From a virus, in IMG/VR virus record IMGVR_UViG_3300037258_001195, positions 1-64,000 of that record: a stretch of 64,000 nt of DNA; one strand, 5' to 3'. Shown piece by piece: positions 17,399 to 58,195 of this stretch. Position numbers and translations under genes: made by a program. The notes below the pieces were generated by a model. It saw only the letters and a list, made by a program, of their open reading frames with translations, searched no databases and was not told the DNA's origin. Each line of letters opens with the position of its first letter. Within the stretch, counting starts at the first letter, position 1.

Positions 17399-17938
17399 CT
17401 AGCGGTTGCCCTGCGCCGCGGTCGCACGACGGCGTAGTTCCTTCGCAACCTCACTTTTAGTGCCTGCCGGCGCGCCGAGGAGGCCTGGTGTCCAGTGGTC
17501 GTTGGGAAGCGTGTCACAATCGGCCAACGCGGCCGCCTCATTGCCCAGCCGGTAATGGCAGTCGGCGCGAAACAACGGACCGAAGCCGCCCTGCCATTGC
17601 GCCGGGTCCAGGCGTTCACAGTGGTCATACGCCTCAATGGCTTCTTGGTAGCGACCCAGGTCCTGAAGGAGACGGCCTCGCGCTTCGTACGGGGCAGGAC
17701 GATCCTCAAGCTCTAGCGATTTCTCGAGGTCGGCCAAAGCCAGTTCGGGCTGGCCCACCTCGGACCATGCCTGGTGCCGGACAAAATATGCTCCGGCATC
17801 TCGCGGACGCTGCTTAACGAACTCGTTGGTCAGAGTCAGAAACTTCTGCGGCTCGGTCCGCAATAGGTAAAACTGACGATCAATGTCGTCATGGGTAATT
17901 TCATCCGCCATAGCGACTGCCTGCCTCGGTTGCTGCAT
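17399..17938 (-). CDS. TPR-repeat protein (candidate immunity/partner of the portal C-terminal domain)
   Basis: ALADLEKSLEL, RGRLLQDLGRYQEAIEAYD TPR motifs; ATG overlaps TAA of upstream frame (TAATG); alternative start 17911. Confidence 0.82.
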   Translation of the reverse strand: MQQPRQAVAMADEITHDDIDRQFYLLRTEPQKFLTLTNEFVKQRPRDAGAYFVRHQAWSEVGQPELALADLEKSLELEDRPAPYEARGRLLQDLGRYQEAIEAYDHCERLDPAQWQGGFGPLFRADCHYRLGNEAAALADCDTLPNDHWTPGLLGAPAGTKSEVAKELRRRATAAQGNR

Positions 17939-18157
17939 TAGACCTCGTTGCCGCCGCACCGTTCGGAGACCTGTCCCAGAAGGCAGCTCAGCATATCCTT
18001 CCCGGGTCCAGAATACCCAGGGCGGAACTTTCCTCATCTCTCATTCTGCTGCAATATTAGTACGCGAATGCCCACTCTCCGGCGCAGTCCGGGTGGTCTG
18101 GAAACGGGTTTACCGGCAGGGATGGTGGCCGCCCTGTTCCGGTCGTCCATTCCCCCC
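17938..18157 (-). pseudogene. Decayed Cys-rich C-terminal extension of the portal
   Basis: Reconstructs as GGEWTT...DCAGEWAFAY*YCSRMRDE/KFRPGYSGPGKDMLSCLLGQVSERCGGNEV*, with a frameshift in G6 (18152-18157), a TAA at 18057-18059 and a second frameshift near 18032. Confidence 0.65.
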
Positions 18158-19627
18158 TTGAGAATTGCCAGCGGAAACCCGCGGCTCGTCCGGGTTGTAT
18201 TTGCGCATTGAAACCGAGCCCGATCGCCGTTCCGAAGCGTGGCGTTCGCAAGCCTGCCTGGATGTACCTGTCGCGAGCCGTGCCAACACTTCTGGCGCGG
18301 AACCAGCACCGCCAAGCGCCACCGCCCCCTGCGTCCCGTACACCATCGGCCGCTCGCCGCCCGGCACCGGGTCGAGCCCCAAGAGGTCCCGCGCCTCGTT
18401 GATCGCGTAGATGCCGCTGCGGACATAGGTGTCGATGATCTTGGCTTCTTGCGCCGCGTCGGCCGGCCGTCCCTCCGCCCACACGAATTCCAACTCCGGC
18501 TCGCCCAGCCGATCCTGGATCACGTGGTCGGCGAGCCGCTTGACCCACCCCATCAGCGGAGCCATGCCCTCGTCGAGCGCGGCCTGCTGCGAGGTTTCGG
18601 CGGTCGCGCGGTTGATCTGCTTTGTAAACGCGGTCGGCGGCAGCGAAAACGCGAAGCACACGATCCGCGCCAGCCACTCGTCAAACTCGTCCTTGTACGG
18701 CGCCTCGGCAAAGGCCTGGTATTTCGACCCGCCCGGCGCCCACACAAGCCGCGTCCGCGACGCCGTGTTGCCGGCGAGCACGCTGTCGAACCATTCCTGG
18801 AACTGCCGGATTTGCTCGGCATTCCACCCATCCGGCGCGCTCAGCAGCCCCGGCGGAACATTCCCCTCGGTGAAATGCTGGAGCTGCATGACCTGGCGCC
18901 GCAGCGCGATGTTGACGGTCATGATGATCTGTTCGACCGGCCCGAACCCATAGGCCTTATGCGGCCGCGGGTTGCGCGGGAGGTAGAGCAGGTCGTCGCC
19001 GGTCAGCAATTTCCACGGCCGCCCGCGGATCACCTGCTCGAAACCCGGCGCCGGCGGACGCGGCCGCCGCCCGGTATCGTCGATCAACAGCTTGATCGTC
19101 GCCCCATCCACCGCGTCGAGCCCGATCAGCTCGCCGGCCCGGTTGCGCCGCATCTCCAGCGCCGGCGCGTCGAGCACCAGCAAGTCTTCGAGCACCTCGC
19201 GCAGCCAGGTCGCGAACGGCCGCTCGCCATCCGGCCGCCGCCAGAACCCTGCGACCTTCGCCACCCGGCCCGGATCGACCCGCGCGCCCCTCACCCCCTT
19301 GATCTTCCAGCCGAGCTTTTCGATCTGGTCCTTGCGCGTCTCGATCGCGAGCCGCGTGATGTCGTGCCCGTCGGCGAGCGCCCGCAATTCCGCGAACGAC
19401 ACCGCCTCATAGGCGCGCGGCGTATAGATCGTGTTGGCGCCGACCGGAAAGTCCCAGACCCGGAGCGCCTCCTCGTCGATCGGCGCCAGCGGATAGCCCG
19501 GCGAGAAAATCCCTAGATCGGGCTGGAACACGTCCCGGAACTGTGCTTCGAGCCCCTGCTGCCCCCAGGTATAGGATGGGGTGAGGCCCGGGGTCAGTGC
19601 TGTGCGCTTACCACCTTGAGGGGGCAT
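18110..19627 (-). CDS. Portal protein
   Basis: DGATIKLLIDDTGRRP, YGFGPVEQI, INEAR..LGL.P; homolog at 53590-56073. Confidence 0.9.
   Translation of the reverse strand: MPPQGGKRTALTPGLTPSYTWGQQGLEAQFRDVFQPDLGIFSPGYPLAPIDEEALRVWDFPVGANTIYTPRAYEAVSFAELRALADGHDITRLAIETRKDQIEKLGWKIKGVRGARVDPGRVAKVAGFWRRPDGERPFATWLREVLEDLLVLDAPALEMRRNRAGELIGLDAVDGATIKLLIDDTGRRPRPPAPGFEQVIRGRPWKLLTGDDLLYLPRNPRPHKAYGFGPVEQIIMTVNIALRRQVMQLQHFTEGNVPPGLLSAPDGWNAEQIRQFQEWFDSVLAGNTASRTRLVWAPGGSKYQAFAEAPYKDEFDEWLARIVCFAFSLPPTAFTKQINRATAETSQQAALDEGMAPLMGWVKRLADHVIQDRLGEPELEFVWAEGRPADAAQEAKIIDTYVRSGIYAINEARDLLGLDPVPGGERPMVYGTQGAVALGGAGSAPEVLARLATGTSRQACERHASERRSGSVSMRKYNPDEPRVSAGNSQGGNGRPEQGGHHPCR
18700..18739. repeat. 40-bp direct repeat, copy 1 (within portal, encodes APGGSKYQAFAEA)
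   Basis: Matches 17327-17366. Confidence 0.9.
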
Positions 19628-22209
19628 CAGAAGCTGCTCCATGCCGCCCGCTTCCAACTATTAGGAGCGGTGCAGGCGTAAAGAAAGTTGCTGTCGAACT
19701 CGAGCTGCCCGGTCTGGCACGCCGCCGAACTCGTCGACGGCGTGCCGCCCGCCGGAAACATCCCGTTCGCCGACGCAGTCGCCGGCGTCACCGCTGTGAC
19801 CCGGAAATTCGCGCCATCGAAGGTCAGCCGCACATACTCGTAATTCTGCCCGTACAACGTCAGCGCGCTTTGAGCTCCACGCGAGCCGGGAACCAAGATT
19901 TGTCCGCCGCCGCTGCCGTTCACCTGCACGGTCAGGGTCTTGCCGTTATCGGTGACGAACCCCATCGACCACCCCGCGGCGATCGCGCTCGTCGCCGGCA
20001 GCGTGACGGTCAGGCTGGAGATCGGCGTGTTGTAGTCCGACATCACCGTCCCGCAATCGGCGAGCGCGGCGGCATAGGTGCTGACCGACGGGAACACCCA
20101 TCTTTCAAGGCACGTCCCGCCGGAGACGCCGATCGAGGCTGCCGTCACCGGCGTCACTTGCATGACCCGGAAATTCGACCCGTCGAACTGCAGCACTGCC
20201 TCCTCGTAATCCCCCGCAGCCAGCATCAGCGACGTCGCGCTGCCGCCGCTGCCGGGATAGACGATCTTGCCGCCATTGGTCGGATTGACCTGAAAATTGG
20301 CGGTCTTGCCGTTGTCATTGACGATCGCGATCGTCCAACCGGGGTTGATCGCACCCGTCTCCGGCAAGGTGACGCTCAGATACCCCAGCGGGCTGTTGAA
20401 GGCCGATATCGCCGTGCCATTATCGGCGACCGTCGTCGCATAGGCGCTGACCGACGGAAAACTCCACCGATCGATCCCGCCGGTCCCGGCCAGGCCGAGC
20501 TGCTGCGCCGTCGCCGGTGTCATCTGCTCGACCCGGAAATTGGCGCCGCCATCATATTGCAAGGTCACGTATTCGTACTGGTCACCGGCCAGCGTCAGCG
20601 ACGTCCGCGCCGCCGCGTTGACCTGCGGGTACAGGATATGTCCGCCATTCGTGTCGTTGACGTTGACCGTCAGGCCCTTGCCCTGGTCGGTCGCAAACCC
20701 CATTGACCACCCCGACGGCAGCGAGGTCGTCGGCGGCAAGGTCACGCTCAGCCCCGCGCTGGTGTTATAGCTCGACACCACATTCCCGTTATCGCCGAGC
20801 CGCGCCGCATACCCGCTCGTCGATGGAAACAGCCAGTTCCCCGGCCAGTCCCGGCTTTCGAGCCCATTCGTCGCCAGCGTATTGCGGGTCCCGAACACGA
20901 CCCGGAAATTATTCCCGTCCGACTCAAGCTGCATATACTCGTAATCCCCCGGCCCCAGCGTCACCGCGCTCAGCGACTTGCCGCCGGCGAGGATCGCTCC
21001 ACTCGGCGCCGTGATCGTCATCCCCTTGCCGTTATCGGTAGCGAACCCCATCCACCATCCGGCCCCGACCGCGCTCGGCGACGGCAAATTCACCGCCAGC
21101 GTCCCGCCGGTCGCGTTGTAGGACGACACCGCGGTGCCGCTATCGACCGCCGACGCGGTAAAGCTCGCCGCCGTCGGAAACTGCCACTGCGCCCAGTTGC
21201 CTGTGCCATTCACCTCGATCCCGGCCGACTGCCCGGCCCGGTTGACGACCGCGCCGCCGTAATTCGGGTTCATCAAGAGGTTGTGCGTGCTCGCCGTCGC
21301 GTTGACCGCGGTGACGCAATCGAAATACGGCGACACGAAGCTGTTCTGCCCGTCATGGGCAAAGCTGATGCCGAGGCAGATCGGCGACGCCTCCATGTCA
21401 AAGGCGAAGATCGTGTTCGAAAAATCGTATCCGTTTTCCAAGAGCAGCGCCGTCCCCCCGGTCCCATTGGCCGAACCGGCCCCCGAGATCCGCGAAAACT
21501 GCACCTGTTCGAGCGCCATCCCGGCGGCACCGCCCGCCGTGTCGGCGACCGCGAATATATCGCTGTCCAACACGTAATTGAGCTGCAACGCCCCCGCTCC
21601 AGCCGCCGTGCTCGCGTTGTTGACGATCAGGTGATCGAGCCGGATCGAGTTATGCGCGTCGGAGAAATCGGTCTTGCCCACCCTCACCGCATAACCCGGC
21701 GTGTCGGCATTGACGAACAGCGTCCCCTCCTGCCGGAAATAAAAGCACCCGGTCGGACTGAGACTCGTCCCGCCCGAGCACTCAACCTGCAACACCGGCC
21801 CCGATCCAACCGACCGCCCGTCGATCGTCGCCCCTTCGGACAACAGCCGAAACCCGTTCCCGGGCTGCGCGGCATAGTCGATCGTGACCTCGCTCGTCAC
21901 CTTGTAAGTCCCGGCCGGCACATGCACCGGCCAGTTGTGAGTGACTGCCGTCTCGATCGTCGCCTGGATCGCCGCCGTATCGTCGTGGCTGTCGTCACCG
22001 AGAGCTCCGTTGCAGCGCACGTCGATCCACGGCCGCCCCGAGCACATCAGCACGTCGCCGTTCATCGTCGCCGTGCCGCTCGTCGCCAATGTCGAGAAGT
22101 TCCCCGGCGATTGCGCGAGCGCGCCCCAGCCGGACGCGACGCACGCCGCAAACGCGGCCGGCGCGATCGCCCGATCGACCCACCGCATCGCCGCCATTTC
22201 CGTCACCAT
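19627..22209 (-). CDS. Signal-peptide-like N-terminus, pectate-lyase-3-type beta-helix and four ~120-aa knob-like repeats (fibre/spike)
   Basis: DVRCNGALGDDSHDDTAAIQ...VPAGTY; four W.FP...GW...DNGK...YE...DG.NFRV repeats; exact start uncertain. Confidence 0.8.
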   Translation of the reverse strand: MVTEMAAMRWVDRAIAPAAFAACVASGWGALAQSPGNFSTLATSGTATMNGDVLMCSGRPWIDVRCNGALGDDSHDDTAAIQATIETAVTHNWPVHVPAGTYKVTSEVTIDYAAQPGNGFRLLSEGATIDGRSVGSGPVLQVECSGGTSLSPTGCFYFRQEGTLFVNADTPGYAVRVGKTDFSDAHNSIRLDHLIVNNASTAAGAGALQLNYVLDSDIFAVADTAGGAAGMALEQVQFSRISGAGSANGTGGTALLLENGYDFSNTIFAFDMEASPICLGISFAHDGQNSFVSPYFDCVTAVNATASTHNLLMNPNYGGAVVNRAGQSAGIEVNGTGNWAQWQFPTAASFTASAVDSGTAVSSYNATGGTLAVNLPSPSAVGAGWWMGFATDNGKGMTITAPSGAILAGGKSLSAVTLGPGDYEYMQLESDGNNFRVVFGTRNTLATNGLESRDWPGNWLFPSTSGYAARLGDNGNVVSSYNTSAGLSVTLPPTTSLPSGWSMGFATDQGKGLTVNVNDTNGGHILYPQVNAAARTSLTLAGDQYEYVTLQYDGGANFRVEQMTPATAQQLGLAGTGGIDRWSFPSVSAYATTVADNGTAISAFNSPLGYLSVTLPETGAINPGWTIAIVNDNGKTANFQVNPTNGGKIVYPGSGGSATSLMLAAGDYEEAVLQFDGSNFRVMQVTPVTAASIGVSGGTCLERWVFPSVSTYAAALADCGTVMSDYNTPISSLTVTLPATSAIAAGWSMGFVTDNGKTLTVQVNGSGGGQILVPGSRGAQSALTLYGQNYEYVRLTFDGANFRVTAVTPATASANGMFPAGGTPSTSSAACQTGQLEFDSNFLYACTAPNSWKRAAWSSF

Positions 22210-26526: not shown

Positions 26527-26780
26527 CACGGCAACATCTTCGGGATTGGTATGTAGTGGCTGGGCCGGTTGATCTCGGCGTCTTCCCAGCCCGTGACGAC
26601 CCACCGGTCATGCTTGTCGGACCAGCGACCCTTTGCGGCCCACCAGAGGCCGTAGTGCGTTCCGGGGCCGTCATCGTCACCCTGTAGCCGCGTGCAGCCG
26701 TCAGCGCCGATCCACCCATAGCGGATGAGGATAAGCGGCTCGCCGTCATGCCTCGGGGCATCCGCTATCGGGATCATCAT
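26526..26780 (-). CDS. DUF551-like phage hypothetical protein
   Basis: PIADAPRHDG...PSHYIPIP pattern. Confidence 0.6.
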   Translation of the reverse strand: MMIPIADAPRHDGEPLILIRYGWIGADGCTRLQGDDDGPGTHYGLWWAAKGRWSDKHDRWVVTGWEDAEINRPSHYIPIPKMLP

Positions 26781-26784
26781 TCGA

Positions 26785-26961
26785 TCACCTTCGGCCAAGG
26801 TCTTCGATCTCAACGATGCGATGTTGCGGGTAGAAGCGGATCGCTGCCTGTTCGGCCCAGCCGCAATAGATCCAAACACCTTCGATAGTCTGTCGCCGCA
26901 ATTCTCCTCGGATCGTCTGATCAGGGTCGCGAAGTGTTGCGACAACATTGTTTCCCAACAT
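26785..26961 (-). CDS. Hypothetical protein (58 aa, not in ORF track)
   Basis: GGAG-spaced ATG; MLGNNVVATLRD...EDLGRR; fills an operon gap. Confidence 0.5.
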   Translation of the reverse strand: MLGNNVVATLRDPDQTIRGELRRQTIEGVWIYCGWAEQAAIRFYPQHRIVEIEDLGRR

Positions 26962-26962
26962 G

Positions 26963-27259
26963 TTAGGCTCCGTGCAGGTGGGCCAGCGCCGCAGCGGACA
27001 GCCGGTCGGGTGGGGTCAGCTCGGGAGGGAGTGCCGGTTTCCACAGCAGCGCGCGCTGCTGTGGGATTGGGCCGCGCGAGGTGTGAACCGTCGTCGAACC
27101 GCGCTCGATCCACGATATCCAACGGTTCTCGGGAGGCGGATCGTCGCGCCATCCGAGAGCGATGAGCCGGGCATATCCGTCGTACAGGCACCCGATCGCT
27201 TGCCTGTCGTCAGGATAAGCTTCCGCGCGGCGGAGTTCCTGTTGGTCGAGGTAGCTCAT
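26963..27259 (-). CDS. Hypothetical phage protein
   Basis: ATGA overlap with upstream lipoprotein gene; RLIALGWRD. Confidence 0.55.
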   Translation of the reverse strand: MSYLDQQELRRAEAYPDDRQAIGCLYDGYARLIALGWRDDPPPENRWISWIERGSTTVHTSRGPIPQQRALLWKPALPPELTPPDRLSAAALAHLHGA

Positions 27260-47151: not shown

Positions 47152-48807
47152 CTAGAAGGCGAAGTTGCCGGTCGTGGGATTAACGTTATTGATGACGGCG
47201 AAGCCCGGCGTGAAGTAGCACGGAAAGACTTCATCCGCATACACGCCATACTCATATCGCCGCGACCGCCAGGGCCATTGGATCTGATAATAATCCTGCC
47301 GAACGCGAGCCTCCAATATATTCCCCACGCCGCTCAGCTCATACGGACTCCGATCCGACCAGAACAAGATCGTCCCAGGCGGAATATACGGATGCAGCTC
47401 TACGTCGAGCGTATTTCCGAAGAACTTGTTGATATAGGACGTGATCTTATAGCCCGCAACCAACTGCCCCTTTTCGTTGTTCTCGAAAAAGAGCCGGAAG
47501 ATATTCGACGTGCCCGACTGACTCATCATCGCGCCGAAGCTGTTCAGCATATCGACCGAGGAGATCAAAATCCGATCAAACCCGATCTTATACTGGTCAT
47601 ACGCGGCGCGAAGAATTGAGTCGAACTCGTTGATATTGACGCCGTTAATCGTGAGGCCCGTGTTCCCGTTGGGACACGAATACACGAGCGATCCCGAGGG
47701 GCTCAACGTGACATTCGCAGGCAACGTAGCCGCAGTTGCCATCTGAGTCCCAGGCGCCGGCCCTGTGATGTTGCCGAAGACCTGATTCAGAATGCCATCG
47801 GGAGTCAGGAAATTGATTGAATTGTCCTGATAATTCCCGCCGACCTGAAGCGATGTAACCGGCTGCGCAGTTGCGGTATTGGGGAATTTCGTAAAGACCG
47901 CCTGAGTCGAGGGCGAGATGCCCGCGAGATATTCGGCACCGGAAGCCGACCCAATAAACCATGCGTAGCCCATCGCCCCGACCACGGAAGCAACCGTAGC
48001 GGTTACGATTTGGGTTGAGGACGTGCCGACACTTGCCTCAGCGGAAGGTTGTGCCGAGCCGCCGCCATAGGTATCGGACGAGCCGTCGGCGTTGATTCGG
48101 GTGATCTGCCCAAGAACACCGCCAGTTCCAGTTGCCGCGTTGTATGGAGAATAATTCGCAATCCCCATTCCCGTAAGCGCAACGGCGCGAACGTAGACAG
48201 TTCCGCCCGAGAATGACCCGGTATTTCCGCCGCCAGCGGCTCCCGCGGAGAGCGTCGGAGTCGGCGTAATCCCCAGCGGCAGATTTGCGTCGCCATTGAT
48301 GAGAAGCTTTTCCTCATCAATCATCAACGAACGAAGACTCGACTGAACACTGATCCCAAGCGTTTCCGGCGAGAGATTTCGACCCGCAAGCCGCGCCTCG
48401 AACGTGACCGAACTCTCGTAGCCGACCGTCTTAAAGGTCGCCATCTGATCCTGTTCGGAGATCGGAATACGCCCGCCACGATTACCTTCCGAGACGCCCG
48501 AGGACATTCCGTTGGGATTAATCGCAACAATACGTTTCCAATGATAGCTGTTTCCGCCGTCCGCGGCAACGCGAGGAAGCCGAGAAATTCGCGGAATCAA
48601 TTCCCGATACGGATAGAGCATCTGGACAACCGGCGACAGATCGTACCAGAGCAGATTCGTGCTCTGGGAAATCGTATCCGCCTTCGCTAGAGCATCCGGA
48701 CCATATTCCGTGTCCAGAAATTTCCTAAAGGTCTCGTTCTGCGTCAGTGCAGAGACGAACTCATTCCCGATCCCGCCAGGGCCGGTGAAAGGAACATTAC
48801 CCGACAT
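47152..48807 (-). CDS. Major capsid protein with FN3/Ig-like insertion
   Basis: Homolog of 14363-15853; AGGAG RBS. Confidence 0.87.
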   Translation of the reverse strand: MSGNVPFTGPGGIGNEFVSALTQNETFRKFLDTEYGPDALAKADTISQSTNLLWYDLSPVVQMLYPYRELIPRISRLPRVAADGGNSYHWKRIVAINPNGMSSGVSEGNRGGRIPISEQDQMATFKTVGYESSVTFEARLAGRNLSPETLGISVQSSLRSLMIDEEKLLINGDANLPLGITPTPTLSAGAAGGGNTGSFSGGTVYVRAVALTGMGIANYSPYNAATGTGGVLGQITRINADGSSDTYGGGSAQPSAEASVGTSSTQIVTATVASVVGAMGYAWFIGSASGAEYLAGISPSTQAVFTKFPNTATAQPVTSLQVGGNYQDNSINFLTPDGILNQVFGNITGPAPGTQMATAATLPANVTLSPSGSLVYSCPNGNTGLTINGVNINEFDSILRAAYDQYKIGFDRILISSVDMLNSFGAMMSQSGTSNIFRLFFENNEKGQLVAGYKITSYINKFFGNTLDVELHPYIPPGTILFWSDRSPYELSGVGNILEARVRQDYYQIQWPWRSRRYEYGVYADEVFPCYFTPGFAVINNVNPTTGNFAF

Positions 48808-48843
48808 CAACGTTCTCCTAATTCAAAATTAATAGGGTGGCAA

Positions 48844-51165
48844 TTACGCCCGCTTACCGGCGGCGGCGCCACGAAAACTCGGATCAAAGATCGACCGTCC
48901 ATTCGTGCCGTTGAGGATGTAGGTTCCGGCAACTTTTCGCCGCGCACCTTCATCATTCTCAAGCTGCATCGGAGAAACGCCCGCATCCTGGATCGCCTTC
49001 ATAAGCGGGTCGCTACCCGCTCCGTCGGCGCCATTTCCGTTTCCGATGACTTTCGTCATATCAAACGCATACGGTGCACGACTGGACGTGCTGCGGGCCA
49101 GAAGATTATTCTGGGCTTCGAGCCGCGCGTTTTCGATGAAGAGCTGAGCCGTCGCGGCATCGATTCGGCCATCCTTGCCAACCGCCTTTGCCAACTTGCC
49201 CCAATCCTTGTCAAGCGCCTGGATCGGCGGCTCGCGGCTACCACCTCGCGTCCCGGGTCCAGCAGTTGCAAGATCGCTCGGCGATAGGTCAGTGACGCCA
49301 GGGGGAACTCGATAGAATTCATTCCCGTGCGTTGGCTCCTGTTCCTTCTCACCAGATCGTCCCGCCATCTTTTTCAACTGTTCCCGGGCAGCCTTGGTAA
49401 AGGTGGAGACCTTCGACAGTTCTGAATATGCCTTATTCAGCTTATCCATCGCACCAGCCGAGTCGAATTCACCATCTTCCTCGTCGGGCTTCGCCTTACC
49501 CTTCGCCGCCTTCTCCATCTTGGAGATATAATAGGCTTTGATGAGCTTGGAGCACTCCTCGATCGCACCGGCAGCTTCCTTGCGAGCCTTCGACGCTTTC
49601 TTCATATTATCGCCCGCAGACTTCATCCGCATCGCCCGAGTTGGCTGAGCCGCCCGCTTGATTACGTCGAGAATCGCGTCCTGCAGAGGATCGCCCCCGC
49701 TAGTCTTCCTGAGATCGTCGCTCGTCGCTGCCATTTCGAAATCCTCACCTAAGAATTGCATGAGATATTGGTCATCGATGTCAGAAAGATCAACTGCCTC
49801 CTGACCTTCATGAGTTGCTTTCTGACCGATGACCGAAGCCAGAATCTGCGCCGCGGAACCTAGGTCTTTCGCCAGGCCCTTGTCCTTCATATCGCCGCCT
49901 TCACCCTTCGCCTCACGAAGAAGACTTCGTTGCGCCGAGCGAATCGAGTCGAAACAGAATGCCAACGACCCAGCAACTTCCATTCGCTTCGAAAGCGGTG
50001 CGGCGAAACTATCTTGTCCGCCTTCCTGAGACTGTCCCAACGTCAGCCACGACGGGAGTACGGGAGGCGCCGCTCCGTCGTCCCTCTCAGCGGCCTTTAG
50101 GGTCAGGAAGGACGGCACTACCGCCGAGCCCGAAGACTTAGTAAGAGATTTAAGAATTACTTTCTCATTAGCGAGTTTTGAGATTGCCGATGCGCGAGCG
50201 GCTTTCTTAGCTTCCTTTGCTGCGGCTTTCTTGCCCCATTTCTCGGGCAACATATCAGTCGCCCCGAGCGCGGCAGCGCGAGCTTTGATGTGGCTCTTTG
50301 CCTTCCCTTTGTCCTTGGCACGGCCAAAAGCCGACACAGCATCCCCGAGAGCTTCTTTGTCGGGAATCGGATAACTCCCATCGGGAAGGGCAATCCCTTT
50401 CCCCGCATATTCCTTTCGTTGATCGGACGAGTACTCCCGTTTCGAAATATCTTCGCCGCATGTCGGACAGCCCGCAACTCCATGAACGGAGCAAATTTTC
50501 GTATTCGCTGCGTCTAGCGGATTGCTAGTCTGCGCGTCAAACGGCGGCTTTCCATCTGCCTTCGCTGTTTTCTTTGGCTTTATCTTCTCTTGTACGTCAC
50601 GAACTAATTCGTCCTGACTCGGGGCCTTGGTGAGAAATTCACTGACCATCGCGAAGCTATTGGCAAGTTTCTGAACACGAGTCTTCTTGGCCTTCCGAAA
50701 CGCCACTCCCGGCTCAAACGCCAATGCTCCCGTCTTGTCCATCTTTGCCATATTAAACCGACACTCTGGATTCGCGGGCCGGTCGACAATGGAGATCTCG
50801 GTCATCGAAAGTCGGGTAATCTTATTCGGATCGTTGGGATCTTTGTCGAGTTTCCGCCCCCCGATCGAAAATCCCTTATAGACCTTATCGACAACTTTCT
50901 TCCAGGCGTCGTCGTCGGAAATCTTCGCGGTCAACCAAAGTCCCTTTCGGTCAACATGCGCCTCTTCGGCAGTTCCAACGGCTTGGAGCCGATGCATCTC
51001 CCGAATATTACCATACTGCATATAATCCGGGAGAGCTGACTTAATCGCCTCAAGTGCGATCGTTTCTCCATCTGAGTCCTTTGCCTCGGTCGAAGCGTAG
51101 CCTGAGATTGTCCTCTTAGCTTCGTCGACCTTAGTGATCGGCAAAAAGAAATTAAGGTCGCTCAT
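48844..51165 (-). CDS. Prohead protease + DUF6582-like domain + long scaffold
   Basis: NIREMH, YKGFSIGG, EISIVDRPANP; ALPDGSYPIPD...HIKARA..LG. Confidence 0.87.
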   Translation of the reverse strand: MSDLNFFLPITKVDEAKRTISGYASTEAKDSDGETIALEAIKSALPDYMQYGNIREMHRLQAVGTAEEAHVDRKGLWLTAKISDDDAWKKVVDKVYKGFSIGGRKLDKDPNDPNKITRLSMTEISIVDRPANPECRFNMAKMDKTGALAFEPGVAFRKAKKTRVQKLANSFAMVSEFLTKAPSQDELVRDVQEKIKPKKTAKADGKPPFDAQTSNPLDAANTKICSVHGVAGCPTCGEDISKREYSSDQRKEYAGKGIALPDGSYPIPDKEALGDAVSAFGRAKDKGKAKSHIKARAAALGATDMLPEKWGKKAAAKEAKKAARASAISKLANEKVILKSLTKSSGSAVVPSFLTLKAAERDDGAAPPVLPSWLTLGQSQEGGQDSFAAPLSKRMEVAGSLAFCFDSIRSAQRSLLREAKGEGGDMKDKGLAKDLGSAAQILASVIGQKATHEGQEAVDLSDIDDQYLMQFLGEDFEMAATSDDLRKTSGGDPLQDAILDVIKRAAQPTRAMRMKSAGDNMKKASKARKEAAGAIEECSKLIKAYYISKMEKAAKGKAKPDEEDGEFDSAGAMDKLNKAYSELSKVSTFTKAAREQLKKMAGRSGEKEQEPTHGNEFYRVPPGVTDLSPSDLATAGPGTRGGSREPPIQALDKDWGKLAKAVGKDGRIDAATAQLFIENARLEAQNNLLARSTSSRAPYAFDMTKVIGNGNGADGAGSDPLMKAIQDAGVSPMQLENDEGARRKVAGTYILNGTNGRSIFDPSFRGAAAGKRA

Positions 51166-51211
51166 CTTAGTCTCCGACAAATTAATCTCAGACTACGCAA
51201 CGCGCGGCGAC

Positions 51212-51454: not shown

Positions 51455-52849
51455 TTAAATTTCTCCTCGATTCAGCCGACTATCGGCCAGTTTACGAACG
51501 TATTTGATAACCCGAGCTACGGAATCAGTCCACGTCAAATCTCGCCCCTGCGTGAAGATCCTAAAATCTTCATACCACGGCGTTCCGACGGGTGAATCCC
51601 ACCATCGCCAGCAACGAGTGTACGGTCCGAGCATTACGACTGGCTTACCCATCGCTCCCGCGAGATGCACCACTGCGCTATCGACAGAAATAACCAGGTC
51701 CAATTCCTGAATAAATCGGGCGGTGTCGTAGAAGTCCTCAATGGCGTGCATAGAGTCGAGCATAAGCGCTTCTGCGCCAAGGGCAAGGACCTCTTTAGAT
51801 TCTTCGCCTTTTTGCAGTGAAATGACCTGAACGCCAGGAATTTCCATTAATGGAAGAAACATTGAGAGCGGAATAACTCGACGCCGAAGGCTCAATGTTT
51901 TCCCGTGATCGCCAGAAGACCAGCAAAGACCAATTTTAAATTTACCAGGAATTCGGCGAATAAGGGGCTCTTTTACAGTCAAGTATGGTTCCGACGAAAT
52001 ATCCTTCGGCATAATTTCCGAATGCCGAATCATACTCAGCATGGGTGTGTGAAAGTCAAAGTTCTTCGCATTCGCCTCAGGTGGAAGACTTTCACAATCC
52101 CAGACCTGAATATCCGGAAAGTTCTCCGCGAACAAACGGACCAAAGGTGCTGCGGTAGCTAAAACGATGCTCCGGGTCCGCGTAGAGAGCTTCGCCAAAA
52201 ATCGAACGAACATCAGACTATCGCCATAGCCTTGTTCGTGATGGACTAAGATGCGTTTTTCGTCTAGATTCTCTCCCTGCCATTCAGGGATGCCAAGGTT
52301 CCAGACGGGATTCTTATACAATTCCTCCCACCGAATCTCATAAAGTGGAAGACCCTGGTCGAGGCGCCCTTGCGACATAATCGTTAAAGCGTGATCGTTC
52401 TTGGTTGCGTAGGCGTCGTAACCCAAAGCTCGCGCGCGCACCATCGCGTCTTCGGCGTCAGCGAACCTATTCTGACGATACAGCAACGTCCCGTAAGTAT
52501 GCCAAATTGCCGGATCACTTGGCTTAAGCCGCCTAGCTTCTCGCAATTGCTCCCGGGCGCCATCAATCCGACCAAGCGCAACCAAATTAATCGCCAGGTT
52601 GTTCCGCGCTTGAAAGTCCTTTGGATCAATTGCAACGGCGCGCTGCCCGACGGTAATTCCCATCTCATGCTTCTGGAGCTTGTAGAGGATTCCCGCTAGA
52701 TTCGACAAAACAACCGAATTATTCGGATCAATAAGAAGTGCTCCCATGTAATGGACGCGAGCGATTTCAAATTCGCCAGCCATTTGATGCTGGCTACCTT
52801 TGAGATTCAGCCCGTAAATTCGACGAATCGAATTATCATCCAACGGCAT
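51455..52849 (-). CDS. TPR-repeat + GT-B (family 9-like) glycosyltransferase
   Basis: N-terminal TPRs; EQGYGD; DLVISVDSAVVHLAGAMGKP; WRW...PWY. Confidence 0.9.
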   Translation of the reverse strand: MPLDDNSIRRIYGLNLKGSQHQMAGEFEIARVHYMGALLIDPNNSVVLSNLAGILYKLQKHEMGITVGQRAVAIDPKDFQARNNLAINLVALGRIDGAREQLREARRLKPSDPAIWHTYGTLLYRQNRFADAEDAMVRARALGYDAYATKNDHALTIMSQGRLDQGLPLYEIRWEELYKNPVWNLGIPEWQGENLDEKRILVHHEQGYGDSLMFVRFLAKLSTRTRSIVLATAAPLVRLFAENFPDIQVWDCESLPPEANAKNFDFHTPMLSMIRHSEIMPKDISSEPYLTVKEPLIRRIPGKFKIGLCWSSGDHGKTLSLRRRVIPLSMFLPLMEIPGVQVISLQKGEESKEVLALGAEALMLDSMHAIEDFYDTARFIQELDLVISVDSAVVHLAGAMGKPVVMLGPYTRCWRWWDSPVGTPWYEDFRIFTQGRDLTWTDSVARVIKYVRKLADSRLNRGEI

Positions 52850-53589: not shown

Positions 53590-56073
53590 TCAAGCGTTAA
53601 GTTGTAACCAACGGGGGCCGGAAGAAAGCCTCTTCTTAGTCTTCTTCATTCTCTTCTTCCGTTGCGGGCCTAAGTCCCTAGAAACAAGATTCGTTCCGGT
53701 CGAAATGGTATCCATCTTCTGGACCAACGCACCTCGACGTGCAACGATAGTTCCAAAGCCTTGCCTAGCAATCGCATGTTTGTGGTCGCCAGTCTTGAGC
53801 CATCGCTTAAACTCGTCCATCGACATCGCGACCATCGCGCCGAGACGTTCTGGACCAAGTCCATCTCCGTTCGAAGCGAAATAATCGTCCATCACGGCTT
53901 TGGATTTACGATATCCAAGAAAGACCTTGTGTTCGTCGAATAATCCGGTCTGCGCGTCAAACTGATCCACCACGAAGACAAACGGGCTTTTAGGATGTCG
54001 GCCGATGCAGACATCAATCTGATCTCCATCGGCGCCCAAGGTTCCGCGGAGATATCCGTAATCTCCGGCCATTTTAGATGACCATTTCGTCCCGTCATCT
54101 TCATGCCCATGGCGTTTCTTCCCCTTCGGGGTTTCAATCGAAATGCTTAACCCTTGAAGCCAAACATGGGCTTTTTTGTAATTTCCGGCTTTCTTCTGGT
54201 GCTTTGAGGGTTTCTGGACATCTTTGGTCGCGGCGCGCAGGACGGAGTACGCGAGCTTGTGGATTGTGGTTGGAGTTCCTGAAGGCTCCCCATGAGGCCG
54301 TGGCGAGCCGCGCTGCGCGGTGTTCTCACCTTTTGGCTGCGGGCTTCCATCCCCCTTCGGCTTACTACCCGACAATTTCGGCTTACCGCTCGCGTCGTCG
54401 CCTAGACTTCCACTACCCGGCGCGAACTGTTGCCCCTCAACTGCCATGTGAAGAGGGACAATTCCCGCCCCCGTCGTAACAGTTGCAATATCCCCATCGT
54501 CGGCAAACGGTTCTTCACCAAGCTCGGCGCGAATTTCATTCCGAGTCCGGACTCCTTCGTTGATCTGAATTTGCTGAATCTGAGCTTGTTTTAGCAAATC
54601 AACTTCGGGCCGTGGAAGATAGACAAATTCGACATCGTCATAGCCAAAGGCATTTATGATCGGGTCAATTACGTCGTCTTTCCACCAAGTCATAAGGGGG
54701 TAGAGACCCTCTTCCTCGGCAGTCTGTTGTGCGTTTTGCGCCGTCGAGCGATTGGTCTGTTTGATGAATGGAGTTGGACTAACCGAGAACGCATAACATG
54801 CTAGGCGGATTAGCATTTCATCTCTATTGGACCAGAGACTCTCACCCGAAGCGTTTTTAATGTCGAAAGGTTTCATCCCACCAGGAACGAAACGGACCTT
54901 CGATTTGAGAGTCAGATTCCCCGAGAGAACTGCATCGAAATGGGCTTGAAAGGATGCAATCTGGCGTGGCGTCCATTGATCTGGAACAGTCACGATTAAC
55001 TCGGGCATCGAGCCATTACGCCAAAATTCAGCCTGATAAAGGGTTTTTCGAATCGCCTCGGTCGTTTCGATAAGCATTTGTTCAATAGGCGAATAGCCGA
55101 ACATCGGAAGTTCGGGTCGGGGTCGCATAATCGGATAATGAAGCTCATCTTCCGACAAATTAATCATCGGAAGCCCGTAGATGATCTGTTGAAAGGCTGG
55201 CTGGCGACGGATGTAGGTTAGCCCGTCGGGACCAACTTCAACCGTCGTATCGGGACGCCGGCCCGTGTCGTCGATCAGGGGAAAGATCGTCGCGCCATCA
55301 AGAACTTGGGCATATTGAACTTGGTCCGTTCGATCGCGACTAATGTAGATACTGGGAGCGTCGATGTCGAAGAGATCGAAAAGCAGCTTTCGCGACCATT
55401 GGGAATAGCTCATCTTCCCGTCGGGCTTGCGAAAAACCTTCTTCATGTGCTCGACGCCAATAGAAGTCTGGCGTGGTTTGTCTTTACGTTGAATCGTCCA
55501 GGGAATCCGAAGCAACTGGTCCATGCGGGTTGATTCGACCGTCGCCAGAACGCCCCAAGAACTCCGCATCGCGCGAAGCATTCCATAAAGGGCCATACGC
55601 TTGGGGACGTAATTTAGATTATATCCAACCGGAAAGTCCCATTCCCGGGGAACGTTGTAATAGGGCGGACCAAAGGGCCAAACTGGCTCCATTGGGCTAT
55701 ACCAGACATTCGCCATATCAACGTCGTCAATCCACGGCGGCGGCTGAGATAGACGCTCGTCGGCGTATTTGGATCGACTAGGGTAGTTCTCATTTCCCCC
55801 AGGAACACCGAACTGTTGCGGAAATTGCTTCAGTCCGGTTCCTTGGTTTCCAGACGGGCGATTTCGGGGGCCGGTGGGGGCAAATGACGATGTGTTCTGA
55901 TACGCCCGCCCCACCATTCCAACACCAGGGTTGTAGCCGGGGGAGACGGGAATTCCGCGCGACTTAGCGAAATTGTCTTTATCTTGCGACCATTCCGAGA
56001 AGCTCTGACGCGGACGTGGCGAGAATTGATCTGCCTGAAGGTCGCGGAGCTTCGTTAGGAATTCATCATTCAT
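53590..56073 (-). CDS. Portal protein fused to C-terminal InPase (polyvalent-protein pyrophosphatase-like) domain
   Basis: DGATIFPLIDDTGRRP portal core; GNYKK.H...IETPKG...YGYLRGTLGADGDQID...VVDQ...FDEHKV...FKRWL. Confidence 0.88.
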   Translation of the reverse strand: MNDEFLTKLRDLQADQFSPRPRQSFSEWSQDKDNFAKSRGIPVSPGYNPGVGMVGRAYQNTSSFAPTGPRNRPSGNQGTGLKQFPQQFGVPGGNENYPSRSKYADERLSQPPPWIDDVDMANVWYSPMEPVWPFGPPYYNVPREWDFPVGYNLNYVPKRMALYGMLRAMRSSWGVLATVESTRMDQLLRIPWTIQRKDKPRQTSIGVEHMKKVFRKPDGKMSYSQWSRKLLFDLFDIDAPSIYISRDRTDQVQYAQVLDGATIFPLIDDTGRRPDTTVEVGPDGLTYIRRQPAFQQIIYGLPMINLSEDELHYPIMRPRPELPMFGYSPIEQMLIETTEAIRKTLYQAEFWRNGSMPELIVTVPDQWTPRQIASFQAHFDAVLSGNLTLKSKVRFVPGGMKPFDIKNASGESLWSNRDEMLIRLACYAFSVSPTPFIKQTNRSTAQNAQQTAEEEGLYPLMTWWKDDVIDPIINAFGYDDVEFVYLPRPEVDLLKQAQIQQIQINEGVRTRNEIRAELGEEPFADDGDIATVTTGAGIVPLHMAVEGQQFAPGSGSLGDDASGKPKLSGSKPKGDGSPQPKGENTAQRGSPRPHGEPSGTPTTIHKLAYSVLRAATKDVQKPSKHQKKAGNYKKAHVWLQGLSISIETPKGKKRHGHEDDGTKWSSKMAGDYGYLRGTLGADGDQIDVCIGRHPKSPFVFVVDQFDAQTGLFDEHKVFLGYRKSKAVMDDYFASNGDGLGPERLGAMVAMSMDEFKRWLKTGDHKHAIARQGFGTIVARRGALVQKMDTISTGTNLVSRDLGPQRKKRMKKTKKRLSSGPRWLQLNA

Positions 56074-56210
56074 AGCAGGCCTTGCACAACGCCAAGCCAT
56101 TCTGGACAATTAAGGGTCTTAAAGCATCGTTTCTCAAGTACGTAACACAAGTAACACTTTGGATGAATCCAACCTTTTAATTTTGTATTGATTATATATG
56201 GAATTTGGTC

Positions 56211-56477: not shown

Positions 56478-56708
56478 TCAGTGAAAGACAAGATCGCTTC
56501 CATTCTCGGGCGAAATCATTTGGTCCGGTTCTGTTTCGCCCCGTTTGGCTTGGATTTTTGCGTAACCGACAATCTCAAGATTCCGCAATTTCACGGCGCG
56601 GAGCTTGTTCTCGACCGCGATGATTGCCAGGGGCGAACCTTTTCGTCCGGGTGCGTAGCCTACGACCATACCCTCTTCGCCGGACTTGAGCTTGACCAAG
56701 AGCTTCAT
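56478..56708 (-). CDS. Hypothetical protein
   Basis: ATGA overlap with TerL stop. Confidence 0.6.
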   Translation of the reverse strand: MKLLVKLKSGEEGMVVGYAPGRKGSPLAIIAVENKLRAVKLRNLEIVGYAKIQAKRGETEPDQMISPENGSDLVFH

Positions 56709-58195
56709 GCCGCGTCCCTCGCATGTCCATAACCAGCGCAGCCTGGATGCCAGACAAATTCCCCGTCCGACACGCGATCCCCGGCCGAAACTGGGTCACC
56801 GCAGCGATGACATGTCCGCTCGCGGCGCGGCGTGAGGGCTTCGACGGTGGATTGATAGATTTTCGTCAGTTCGTTCTCGAAATCGACACCGAGATTCTCA
56901 TCTTCGTGATTCCACGGGAGCCGCGGCTTCGGATCGTCAGAGACATTCTCGATTGTCCGCTTGGCTTCGCCGGCGTAGTAGGACATAAGGCTCGCCCCGG
57001 GCGCGACTTCGGTCAGCATTTGGCGCGCGAGAGCCAGGGAACACACGCAATCGTCGTTATGTCCCTCTGGGGCAGAATATCTAACGCCAGTACGGGTGGT
57101 CTCGTATTCGAAAATTTCCAATTCTTGGGAAATCGGCCCCTCGGGATAACCGATGTCGTGGCCTTGAATAGAGACGGAAAGCCCCTCCATCAGACGCTGC
57201 TTCGAGAGTTGGGTGAAATTATAGCCTGTGAAATTTCCATGCTCGACCTGGAGTTCTTCCAGTACTGGGTCGCCAACTCCGGTTGAGTCCACCAGGGCCG
57301 GCGTGTCTTCCCCGACAATCGCGTGGATGCGCCGAATTGATTCGGTCCAGGGAACTCCGCGCCACCGCTCGAAAACAGCCGTTTGACCATCCTCATCGAG
57401 GCCAATGACCACGAGATAGTCTTGTTTTTTCGCGAGGTCGACGCCGAAGGCAACTGCGGGCTTGAGGCTTAGACCGTTTTGGATGCACGCGGAGATATGG
57501 GCAAAGCCGAATGGGTTTCCGCCGTCGTCACTGGCCGCCGCCTCATACAGCTCCAGGAAGACTTGTTCGGGAAGATTTCGCCGAGCGTCTTCGATTTCCT
57601 CGATGTCCAGGACGCCCGCATCGACCGCGTCGCGCCAAGTGATCCGCTCGAAATGTGCGTTGGGGTCTTTGCCTGCCTCGACTCGGCGCGCCCACTCGTA
57701 GAACCAATTCCTTCGGCCCTTGACGTTGCCGATGATAACCGCCCAGCCGCGCGTTGCGGTCAAGGTTGATCGGACGGCATACCATGCTTCCGGGCGGGCG
57801 CGGCTAGCTTCATCGATAACAGCGCCGAAGACGTCTTCGCCATAGAGACTGTCGGGATTGTCCGCCGACTTAAACCAGAGGACTGCGCCGGTAATTAAGG
57901 TGATTGATGGAGTCGGGCTTTCGCGCGCCGTGAAAGATCCCGCCGTTAGGTTTTGCTTGACGCGGGCGAAGGCGATCCGAGCTTGGTCGGAAACCGGCGC
58001 GACCCACCAGAAGTTCTGGCCGAAAGTCCCATTCAGGCCGGCCTCGATGAGCCGCACGATCGCCCCGACAGTTTTGCCTGATTTGGTTGAGGCTTCGCAA
58101 AGAGCCCAACGTTTGGACGGGAATATGGCGCGTTCTTGCTTTGGATATAAATACGGGCGCTCGTAAACGGTTATGGGTGAACCAGTTTCGTCCAA
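56705..58195 (-). CDS. terL: Terminase large subunit (different clade from module A)
   Basis: ASTKSGKT Walker A; AVIDEA Walker B; GVDLAK, DSTGVG, NDDCV nuclease motifs. Confidence 0.9.
   Translation of the reverse strand: MDETGSPITVYERPYLYPKQERAIFPSKRWALCEASTKSGKTVGAIVRLIEAGLNGTFGQNFWWVAPVSDQARIAFARVKQNLTAGSFTARESPTPSITLITGAVLWFKSADNPDSLYGEDVFGAVIDEASRARPEAWYAVRSTLTATRGWAVIIGNVKGRRNWFYEWARRVEAGKDPNAHFERITWRDAVDAGVLDIEEIEDARRNLPEQVFLELYEAAASDDGGNPFGFAHISACIQNGLSLKPAVAFGVDLAKKQDYLVVIGLDEDGQTAVFERWRGVPWTESIRRIHAIVGEDTPALVDSTGVGDPVLEELQVEHGNFTGYNFTQLSKQRLMEGLSVSIQGHDIGYPEGPISQELEIFEYETTRTGVRYSAPEGHNDDCVCSLALARQMLTEVAPGASLMSYYAGEAKRTIENVSDDPKPRLPWNHEDENLGVDFENELTKIYQSTVEALTPRRERTCHRCGDPVSAGDRVSDGEFVWHPGCAGYGHARDAA

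Follow-up and report, generated by a model that had tools for sequence, protein, structure and literature searches.

A phage portal protein with a family I pyrophosphatase-like domain in a variable C-terminal slot

Results

A portal and an InPase domain in a single reading frame

We analyzed a stretch of viral DNA of 64,000 nucleotides (nt), positions 1 to 64,000 of the IMG/VR record IMGVR_UViG_3300037258_001195 and hereafter called the window, in which a gene on the minus strand joins a phage portal protein in frame to a C-terminal domain of the InPase family (Pfam PF18823). The parts of this gene are listed below, with amino acid (aa) numbers counted from the TTG codon that opens the reading frame.

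53590..56109, minus strand: portal-InPase fusion gene, a single uninterrupted open reading frame (ORF) of 839 codons from TTG; stop codon at 53590-53592
55705..56073, minus strand: N-terminal extension, aa 13-135; low complexity, yet conserved inside the clade of the window protein (alignment consensus; N-termini of relatives)
54430..55704, minus strand: portal core, aa 136-560, with PF04860 at aa 202-531
54202..54429, minus strand: linker, aa 561-636, 76 residues; rich in G, P, S and K and predicted to be disordered
53794..54201, minus strand: InPase domain, aa 637-772; PF18823, family I pyrophosphatase-like OB (oligonucleotide/oligosaccharide-binding) fold
53593..53793, minus strand: C-terminal tail, aa 773-839, 67 aa; clade-specific, conserved and basic

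The ATG at 56073 is the probable start, giving 827 aa, because the N-termini of homologues coincide with Met13. The front half of the protein belongs to phrog_2662, annotated as portal (E 1.5e-53, PHROGs database), and its match to the Pfam model Phage_portal (PF04860, aa 202-531) scores 56.9 bits, above the cut-off of 39.1; the gene lies directly after that of the large terminase in a head module, with those of protease and capsid downstream. The linker consists of 64% G, S, P, K, T and Q, and the AlphaFold confidence score (predicted local distance difference test, pLDDT) does not exceed 50 over aa 561-620, its first approximately 60 residues. Alignment blocks contain one conserved short motif in the linker, P-(V/I)-H-K, which here reads TTIHK (aa 612-616). 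Its HK was not found as a shared cleavage site in the protease, the capsid or other head proteins. This order of portal core, linker rich in G, S, K and P, and InPase-like domain is the one given by a first-pass annotation of the same DNA.

The in-frame fusion is thus confirmed and precisely located. Nearly all of the 120 top-ranking relatives in the databases, which share 51-74% identity and for the most part have 800-850 aa, contain both domains in one chain, and in 10 IMG/VR loci the two domains form one ORF. An artefact, either a sequencing error joining two genes or a chimeric contig, might be suspected in a record of 92,987 bp that has two head modules and in which GC content is approximately 67% up to about 26 kb and approximately 52% from there to the end, with a sharp change near 26-28 kb. 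The change is nevertheless 25 kb away from the portal-InPase gene, and the same single-ORF architecture recurs in over 100 independent sequences drawn from four sources, in addition to the 10 IMG/VR loci. This recurrence practically refutes an artefact, which we regard as exceedingly improbable.

The C-terminal domain has the fold of family I pyrophosphatases

The Pfam model InPase (PF18823) matches aa 637-772 with 148.4 bits (cut-off 26.8, E 1.4e-43) over positions 2-135 of its 135, placing the domain at nt 53794-54201, in agreement with the approximate position of 53790-54215 suggested previously. Six PHROG families, with annotations such as polyvalent, “DarB-like”, “minor head” and “virion structural”, match the same stretch. 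We predicted the structure of aa 561-839 with AlphaFold using an alignment of 30 relatives. The block-mean pLDDT of the InPase domain is 79-97, and part of the C-terminal tail falls below 50. All top Foldseek matches to the predicted structure in the PDB are family I inorganic pyrophosphatases (PPases; E approximately 1e-4). VIA-align superimposes 107 residues on E. coli PPase 1faj with a Z score of 7.4 and a root-mean-square deviation of 3.5 Å, and 50 of the 50 matches listed are PPases; since a Z score below 8 is weak alone, it was counted jointly with the match to the hidden Markov model (HMM). The four lines of evidence (Pfam, PHROGs, Foldseek and VIA-align) agree in bearing out the assignment to InPase made in the first-pass annotation: the domain has a family I pyrophosphatase fold and is the InPase module of polyvalent proteins.

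Similarity to cellular PPases at the sequence level is marginal (E 0.2), with IETPKG and DYGYLRGTLGADGDQID aligned to the corresponding PPase motifs. The domain comprises approximately 136 aa versus approximately 170 in cellular PPases, and in the marginal HMMER alignment to Rv3628 the query is gapped in the region where cellular PPases have a β-hairpin inserted between strands 1 and 2.

Putative catalytic residues are well kept. E659, R666, Y684, Y686, D694, D699, E726 and K728 are invariant in all 125 portal-InPase sequences, D715 is present in 124 of them and D725 in 123; by these column counts, the conserved acidic metal ligands of InPase are in place. From the motif line-up with E. coli Ppa, we take the conserved residues to be metal and phosphate ligands. 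All expected metal- and phosphate-binding residues being kept, the domain is most likely an active Mg-dependent hydrolase of diphosphate bonds. More cautiously, we read it as an active or at least ligand-binding hydrolase whose substrate need not be inorganic pyrophosphate (PPi). We found no tested function for portal-borne or polyvalent InPase in the literature.

The middle Asp of the DxDxxD-type motif, D696 (codon 54022-54024, minus strand), is variable. It is Asp in the window protein and in 31 of the 125 sequences, and Met in 82 of them. Met at this position hints at changed chemistry or substrate in many relatives.

C-termini vary across the portal family

Using the portal core alone as a query (E ≤0.001), we collected 3274 representatives of clusters at 50% identity. 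C-termini were then classified with our own HMMs and Pfam in the best 150 of these representatives plus the window protein, 147 of which are complete, as follows; our MuF model may miss divergent MuF domains in these counts.

74 of 147: portal-MuF
2 of 147: portal-InPase followed, further on, by MuF
9 of 147: portal-InPase without MuF
33 of 147: other extensions of at least 120 aa
29 of 147: chains ending within 120 aa of the core

Further Pfam domains detected across all these C-terminal extensions are Acb1 (three proteins), ADP-ribosyltransferase (four) and zeta toxin (two), as well as barnase-type ribonuclease, PBECR1, colicin E5 and histidine phosphatase. Where mapped, the extra domains of sister portals occupy the same place as the InPase domain of the window protein (aa 637-772): Acb1 at aa 619-759 of P0195 and zeta toxin at aa 700-843 of P0249 both lie between portal and MuF, as do the InPase and subsequent ADP-ribosyltransferase of P0187. 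A FastTree phylogeny of 129 cores, for which support is local only, shows at least 42 switches of C-terminal class. On this tree, the window portal and three other InPase portals form one clade with 100% support; the two portals with both InPase and MuF fall elsewhere, outside the window clade. Several relatives are lengthened by 300-400 aa by inteins (PF14528, PF14890), which interrupt the portal core in P0002, P0014, P0048, P0083 and P0124 and the MuF C-terminal end in P0169, P0197, P0204 and P0236.

The catalogue had been set beforehand as a check on the proposal that this lineage uses the portal C-terminus as a variable slot for effector delivery. The C-termini are far from uniform, and the variable slot holds for the family. 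The delivery idea and the fusion itself had already been published (PMC5512222), and the slot restates the established concept of polyvalent proteins and MuF toxins (PMC5512222; PMC5576092). With Acb1 on sister portals, each virion would contain a known counter-defence enzyme, acting against CBASS (cyclic oligonucleotide-based antiphage signaling system), in twelve copies.

The variable slot also bears on where the enzyme acts. The InPase domain might do all its work in the producing cell ahead of assembly, where it could for instance remove PPi as late replication proceeds; the fusion would then merely serve co-expression, and presence in the head would be incidental. Family I PPases are soluble housekeeping enzymes, and PPi clearance is among the options of Iyer et al. 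(PMC5512222). A scarce late structural protein would nevertheless be a poor source of PPase for a cell already well supplied, and probably independent fusions on different portal subfamilies (see Discussion), together with the slot shared with Acb1 and toxins, point to packaging. We consider action confined to the producing cell quite improbable.

The portal tail shares a peptide with the major capsid protein

The 67-residue tail contains, in this order, a capsid-like peptide, a polybasic run (R817-R827) and the terminal sequence GPRWLQLNA, which is strictly conserved in the clade as GPRWLxLxA. The peptide, its counterpart in the capsid protein and the genes concerned are located as follows.

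53671..53718, minus strand: portal tail peptide KMDTISTGTNLVSRDL, aa 798-813, 16 aa
48637..48684, minus strand: capsid peptide KADTISQSTNLLWYDL, aa 43-58 of the major capsid protein
47152..48810, minus strand: major capsid protein gene, 552 aa, assigned by homology to annotated Arthrobacter phage major capsid proteins
48844..51180, minus strand: S78 prohead serine protease continuing into a long scaffold-like region, 778 aa, approximately 620 of them beyond the protease

The two copies agree in K-x-D-T-I/V-S-x-x-T-x-L-x-x-Y-D, and a pattern for the peptide, run on all six reading frames of the record, matches no ORFs other than those of the portal and the capsid protein. We also built an HMM from 99 tails of other portals, leaving the window protein out. 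Among 970 ORFs it matched the window capsid protein with an E-value of 3e-11, the tail of the window portal with 4.6e-6 and the capsid protein of the other head module (module A) with 0.037; all remaining E-values were at least 0.7. Related IMG/VR loci retain both copies. Within the portals, only the InPase clade has the peptide, and in P0126 it precedes the InPase domain. The peptide common to portal tail and capsid is a new detail.

Judged from sequence, the peptide may be where the S78 prohead protease, a candidate enzyme for any processing of portal or capsid, acts; it would cut after Lys, and the HK97 protease cuts after Lys103. Equally, the peptide may imitate the N-arm of the coat protein, docking the tail on capsid or scaffold. 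A more ambitious proposal is that the peptide is a head-assembly signal of one of these two kinds governing docking or release of the cargo, and that the InPase domain is an injected counter-defence hydrolase of a nucleotide-type signal rather than a plain pyrophosphatase; we rate it as unlikely when taken as a whole.

These properties of the tail would also suit an InPase domain that remains attached to the portal and works for the virion. Domain and basic tail would then jointly replace MuF, holding or organizing the DNA end close to the portal or helping head assembly to nucleate and reach completion, while the old active site would bind phosphate or have no use. Consistently, the window clade has InPase and tail where 74 of 147 relatives have MuF, the tail combines a polybasic run with a strictly conserved terminus and copies the N-terminal peptide of the capsid protein, as a docking mimic would, and the MuF protein gp7 of SPP1 binds the portal (PMC5576092). 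Met at the position of the middle Asp in most relatives agrees with such a role too. The (near-)invariance of the other ten putative catalytic or ligand residues, on the other hand, is hard to explain without a small-molecule site. In addition, the same type of InPase is present in polyvalent proteins of 2000-4000 aa of phages and prophages that have no portal, and Pbunavirus portals carry InPase without such a tail. A permanently tethered, virion-serving domain therefore seems to us somewhat unlikely.

MuF is absent and the second portal carries no cargo domain

The first-pass annotation stated that neither head module has a separate MuF gene, and we found none in the entire record. PF04233 matched neither the fusion protein nor the 92,987-bp record (PF06152 and the MuF3 and MuF4 models were not run), an HMM of the family's own MuF domains had no match among the 970 six-frame ORFs of the record at E-values up to 10, and PHROG scans of the head and tail genes yielded no MuF. 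Architecture explains the missing MuF gene: members of this family usually carry MuF at the C-terminal end of the portal polypeptide itself, and in the window clade the domain is absent.

The window contains a second portal of the same family:

18110..19657, minus strand: portal A, in the high-GC module, 515 aa; short C-terminus, no intact cargo domain

Portal A is 33% identical to the window portal-InPase protein over aa 142-582 and ends approximately 65 aa past the core with KYNPDEPRVSAGNSQGG, with no folded domain. In this end of the gene (18110-18260, minus strand), KYNPDEPRVSAGNSQGG is followed by a tract of six G, and the shifted frame reads GGEWTT plus approximately 33 residues to a stop. 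A “first cargo” on portal A could thus be at most these approximately 33 frameshifted residues. The suggestion that the window holds two homologous portals with unrelated cargo does not stand: it is the database, and not the window itself, that displays different cargoes. The motif YNPxEPR...GG(E/Q)W at the end of portal A was considered as a general linker of the family and rejected, being present in only 6 of 151 representatives.

Genomic setting

The record is labeled a provirus by IMG/VR and has a CheckV completeness of 100%. Positions 26534-27247 are 90-92% identical to 92460-92987, 65.9 kb apart, and the two copies bracket the low-GC element. Given this spacing, and since portal relatives sit on contigs of 60-70 kb, the element looks like one complete genome of approximately 66 kb. 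Both the length (0.5-0.7 kb) and the divergence of the bracketing copies are too great for att sites and suggest tandem related elements, recombination or possibly a join made in assembly. No tyrosine integrase (PF00589) was found in the record, and the ORFs around the junction (24.8-30 kb) yielded no useful Pfam match.

The low-GC head module (module B) encodes terminase, portal-InPase, an unknown protein of 232 aa, a tetratricopeptide repeat (TPR) protein resembling glycosyltransferase family 9 (GT9), protease-scaffold, capsid, adaptor, neck, tape measure and tail proteins, and endolysin. Its terminase is placed as follows.

56705..58195, minus strand: large terminase of module B, in the same head module as portal-InPase (PHROGs)

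The counterpart of the module B protease in module A has 403 aa and contains DUF6582, the module B protein being twice as long. In both modules a TPR-repeat gene lies between portal and protease (51455-52849 and 17399-18037, both minus strand); that of module B is longer and has a weak match to heptosyltransferases (GT9). In module A, 19627-22209 (minus strand) encodes a protein of 860 aa with a pectate-lyase-like domain and a tail-protein-like end. It is located between terminase and portal, an unusual site for a spike-like gene.

Discussion

A possible role for the portal-borne enzyme

The reading we favor, with chances that we judge to be roughly even, is that the InPase domain is a cargo loaded with the portal, probably freed by a protease, ejected with the DNA and acting in the new cell. 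The C-terminus of solved portals projects from the crown towards the interior of the head. Each portal subunit of the window phage would bear one pyrophosphatase-like domain on a flexible tether of approximately 75 residues, and by analogy with the solved portals twelve copies would be expected within each capsid, loaded as part of the portal. The prohead protease would probably free them, and they would leave with the DNA into the newly infected cell. There, the enzyme would likely hydrolyze a diphosphate bond in a Mg-dependent manner, with PPi or a nucleotide-derived compound as candidate substrates, and might either remove PPi to the benefit of early synthesis or break down a defence or alarm molecule of nucleotide type. 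Observations in favor of this reading include the following: the 237 C-terminal residues without density in the portals of Pa193 and E217, which fit a flexible or released domain; the use of the same slot by Acb1, zeta toxin and ADP-ribosyltransferase in sister portals; and the peptide shared with the capsid protein, as a possible processing signal, together with the nearby S78 protease gene.

Several points weigh against a released and injected enzyme. A domain still covalently bound to the portal could not leave the head. In the window clade, the shared peptide lies after the InPase domain, so that a cut there would detach the basic tail alone, and a second site in the linker would be needed to set the enzyme free. 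The abundance of host PPase weakens a simple role in PPi clearance. Finally, D696 lines up, by motif only, with D67 of E. coli PPase, and with Met in 82 of 125 relatives at this position classical PPi hydrolysis may not be the conserved function.

Comparison with known systems

The portal-InPase fusion as such is not new: its description dates from 2017, and PB1-like Pseudomonas phages carry it as a rule. Iyer et al. (PMC5512222) defined the InPase of polyvalent proteins, attributed four acidic metal ligands to it and stated that portal-fused versions exist, citing BcepF1 gp124; they proposed injection, with hydrolysis of nucleotide signals or PPi clearance as the role. BcepF1 gp124 (YP_001039808.1) and gp19 of Pa193 and E217 (765 aa) resemble the window protein in having a portal followed by a C-terminal PF18823 domain. 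The Pa193 portal gp19 (PDB 9b41) is the sole solved chain that strongly matches the window protein, and it does so via its C-terminal aa 637-758, which align with window aa 649-776 (E 7e-18). In the cryo-electron microscopy papers on Pa193 and E217, the portal model stops at residue 528 (the chain has 765), with no mention of the enzyme domain. InPase is carried by approximately 290 Pseudomonas phage records and by fewer records of Escherichia, Serratia, Burkholderia and other phages; the PB1-like records among those listed annotate the gene at the InPase match as portal or minor head protein.

The window protein differs from these fusions in several respects. Its core has no detectable sequence relation to that of Pa193 (the second aligned stretch has an independent E-value of 110) and therefore represents a different portal subfamily, in which the fusion probably arose independently. 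Unlike PB1-like and BcepF1-like portals, the window clade adds the 67-residue tail with the capsid-like peptide and basic run, and the window phage looks non-contractile-tailed, with a genome of approximately 66 kb, whereas PB1-like and BcepF1-like phages are myophages. Among GTDB genomes, 53 InPase loci included no portal fusion of the window clade, most being giant polyvalent proteins. Within the portal family itself, gp3 of Arthrobacter phage Sonali, annotated as “portal and MuF-like fusion protein”, has 28% identity to the window protein and is accompanied by a homologous capsid protein; its C-terminal extension arises at the same point, the window protein having no MuF domain.

Conceptual parallels are polyvalent proteins and MuF polymorphic toxins, which are virion-borne carriers of variable enzyme and toxin domains, InPase being one of the listed modules (PMC5512222; Jamet et al. 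2017, PMC5576092). Two relatives, P0180 (portal-InPase-MuF) and P0187 (portal-InPase-ADP-ribosyltransferase-MuF), are of this type. In contrast, the window protein has a single effector-like domain, no MuF and no in-chain processing peptidase, and no toxin/immunity pair was seen. Pfam detects only one effector-type domain besides the portal, compared with the 2-15 that a true polyvalent protein has in one virion-packaged chain, often along with a processing peptidase, and the architecture is one of the “simplest architectures” (portal or MuF fusions) of Iyer et al. Portal-InPase fusions are present in hundreds of sequenced phages, including therapeutic Pseudomonas phages with solved virion structures. 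To these, the window adds the occurrence of this fusion on a second, unrelated portal subfamily, an overview across the family of a variable portal-MuF slot that also holds Acb1, ADP-ribosyltransferase and zeta toxin, and a peptide common to portal tail and capsid protein that is a candidate for processing or docking, without revealing a new principle.

Two further systems are comparable in fold and in proposed function, respectively. The family I PPases, such as E. coli Ppa and M. tuberculosis Rv3628, share the fold, the DxDxxD-type motif (DGDQID in the window protein) and the downstream D...DExK ligands; they are free hexamers, whereas the InPase domain of the window protein is tethered to a portal. 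The internal proteins of T4 and its Alt protein are packed into the prohead, undergo trimming by its protease and are ejected together with the DNA. Alt is also cited as an example in PMC5512222. The likeness is one of proposed function and not of membership, as T4 loads its proteins via an N-terminal capsid-targeting peptide, whereas the window phage would do so through covalent fusion to the portal.

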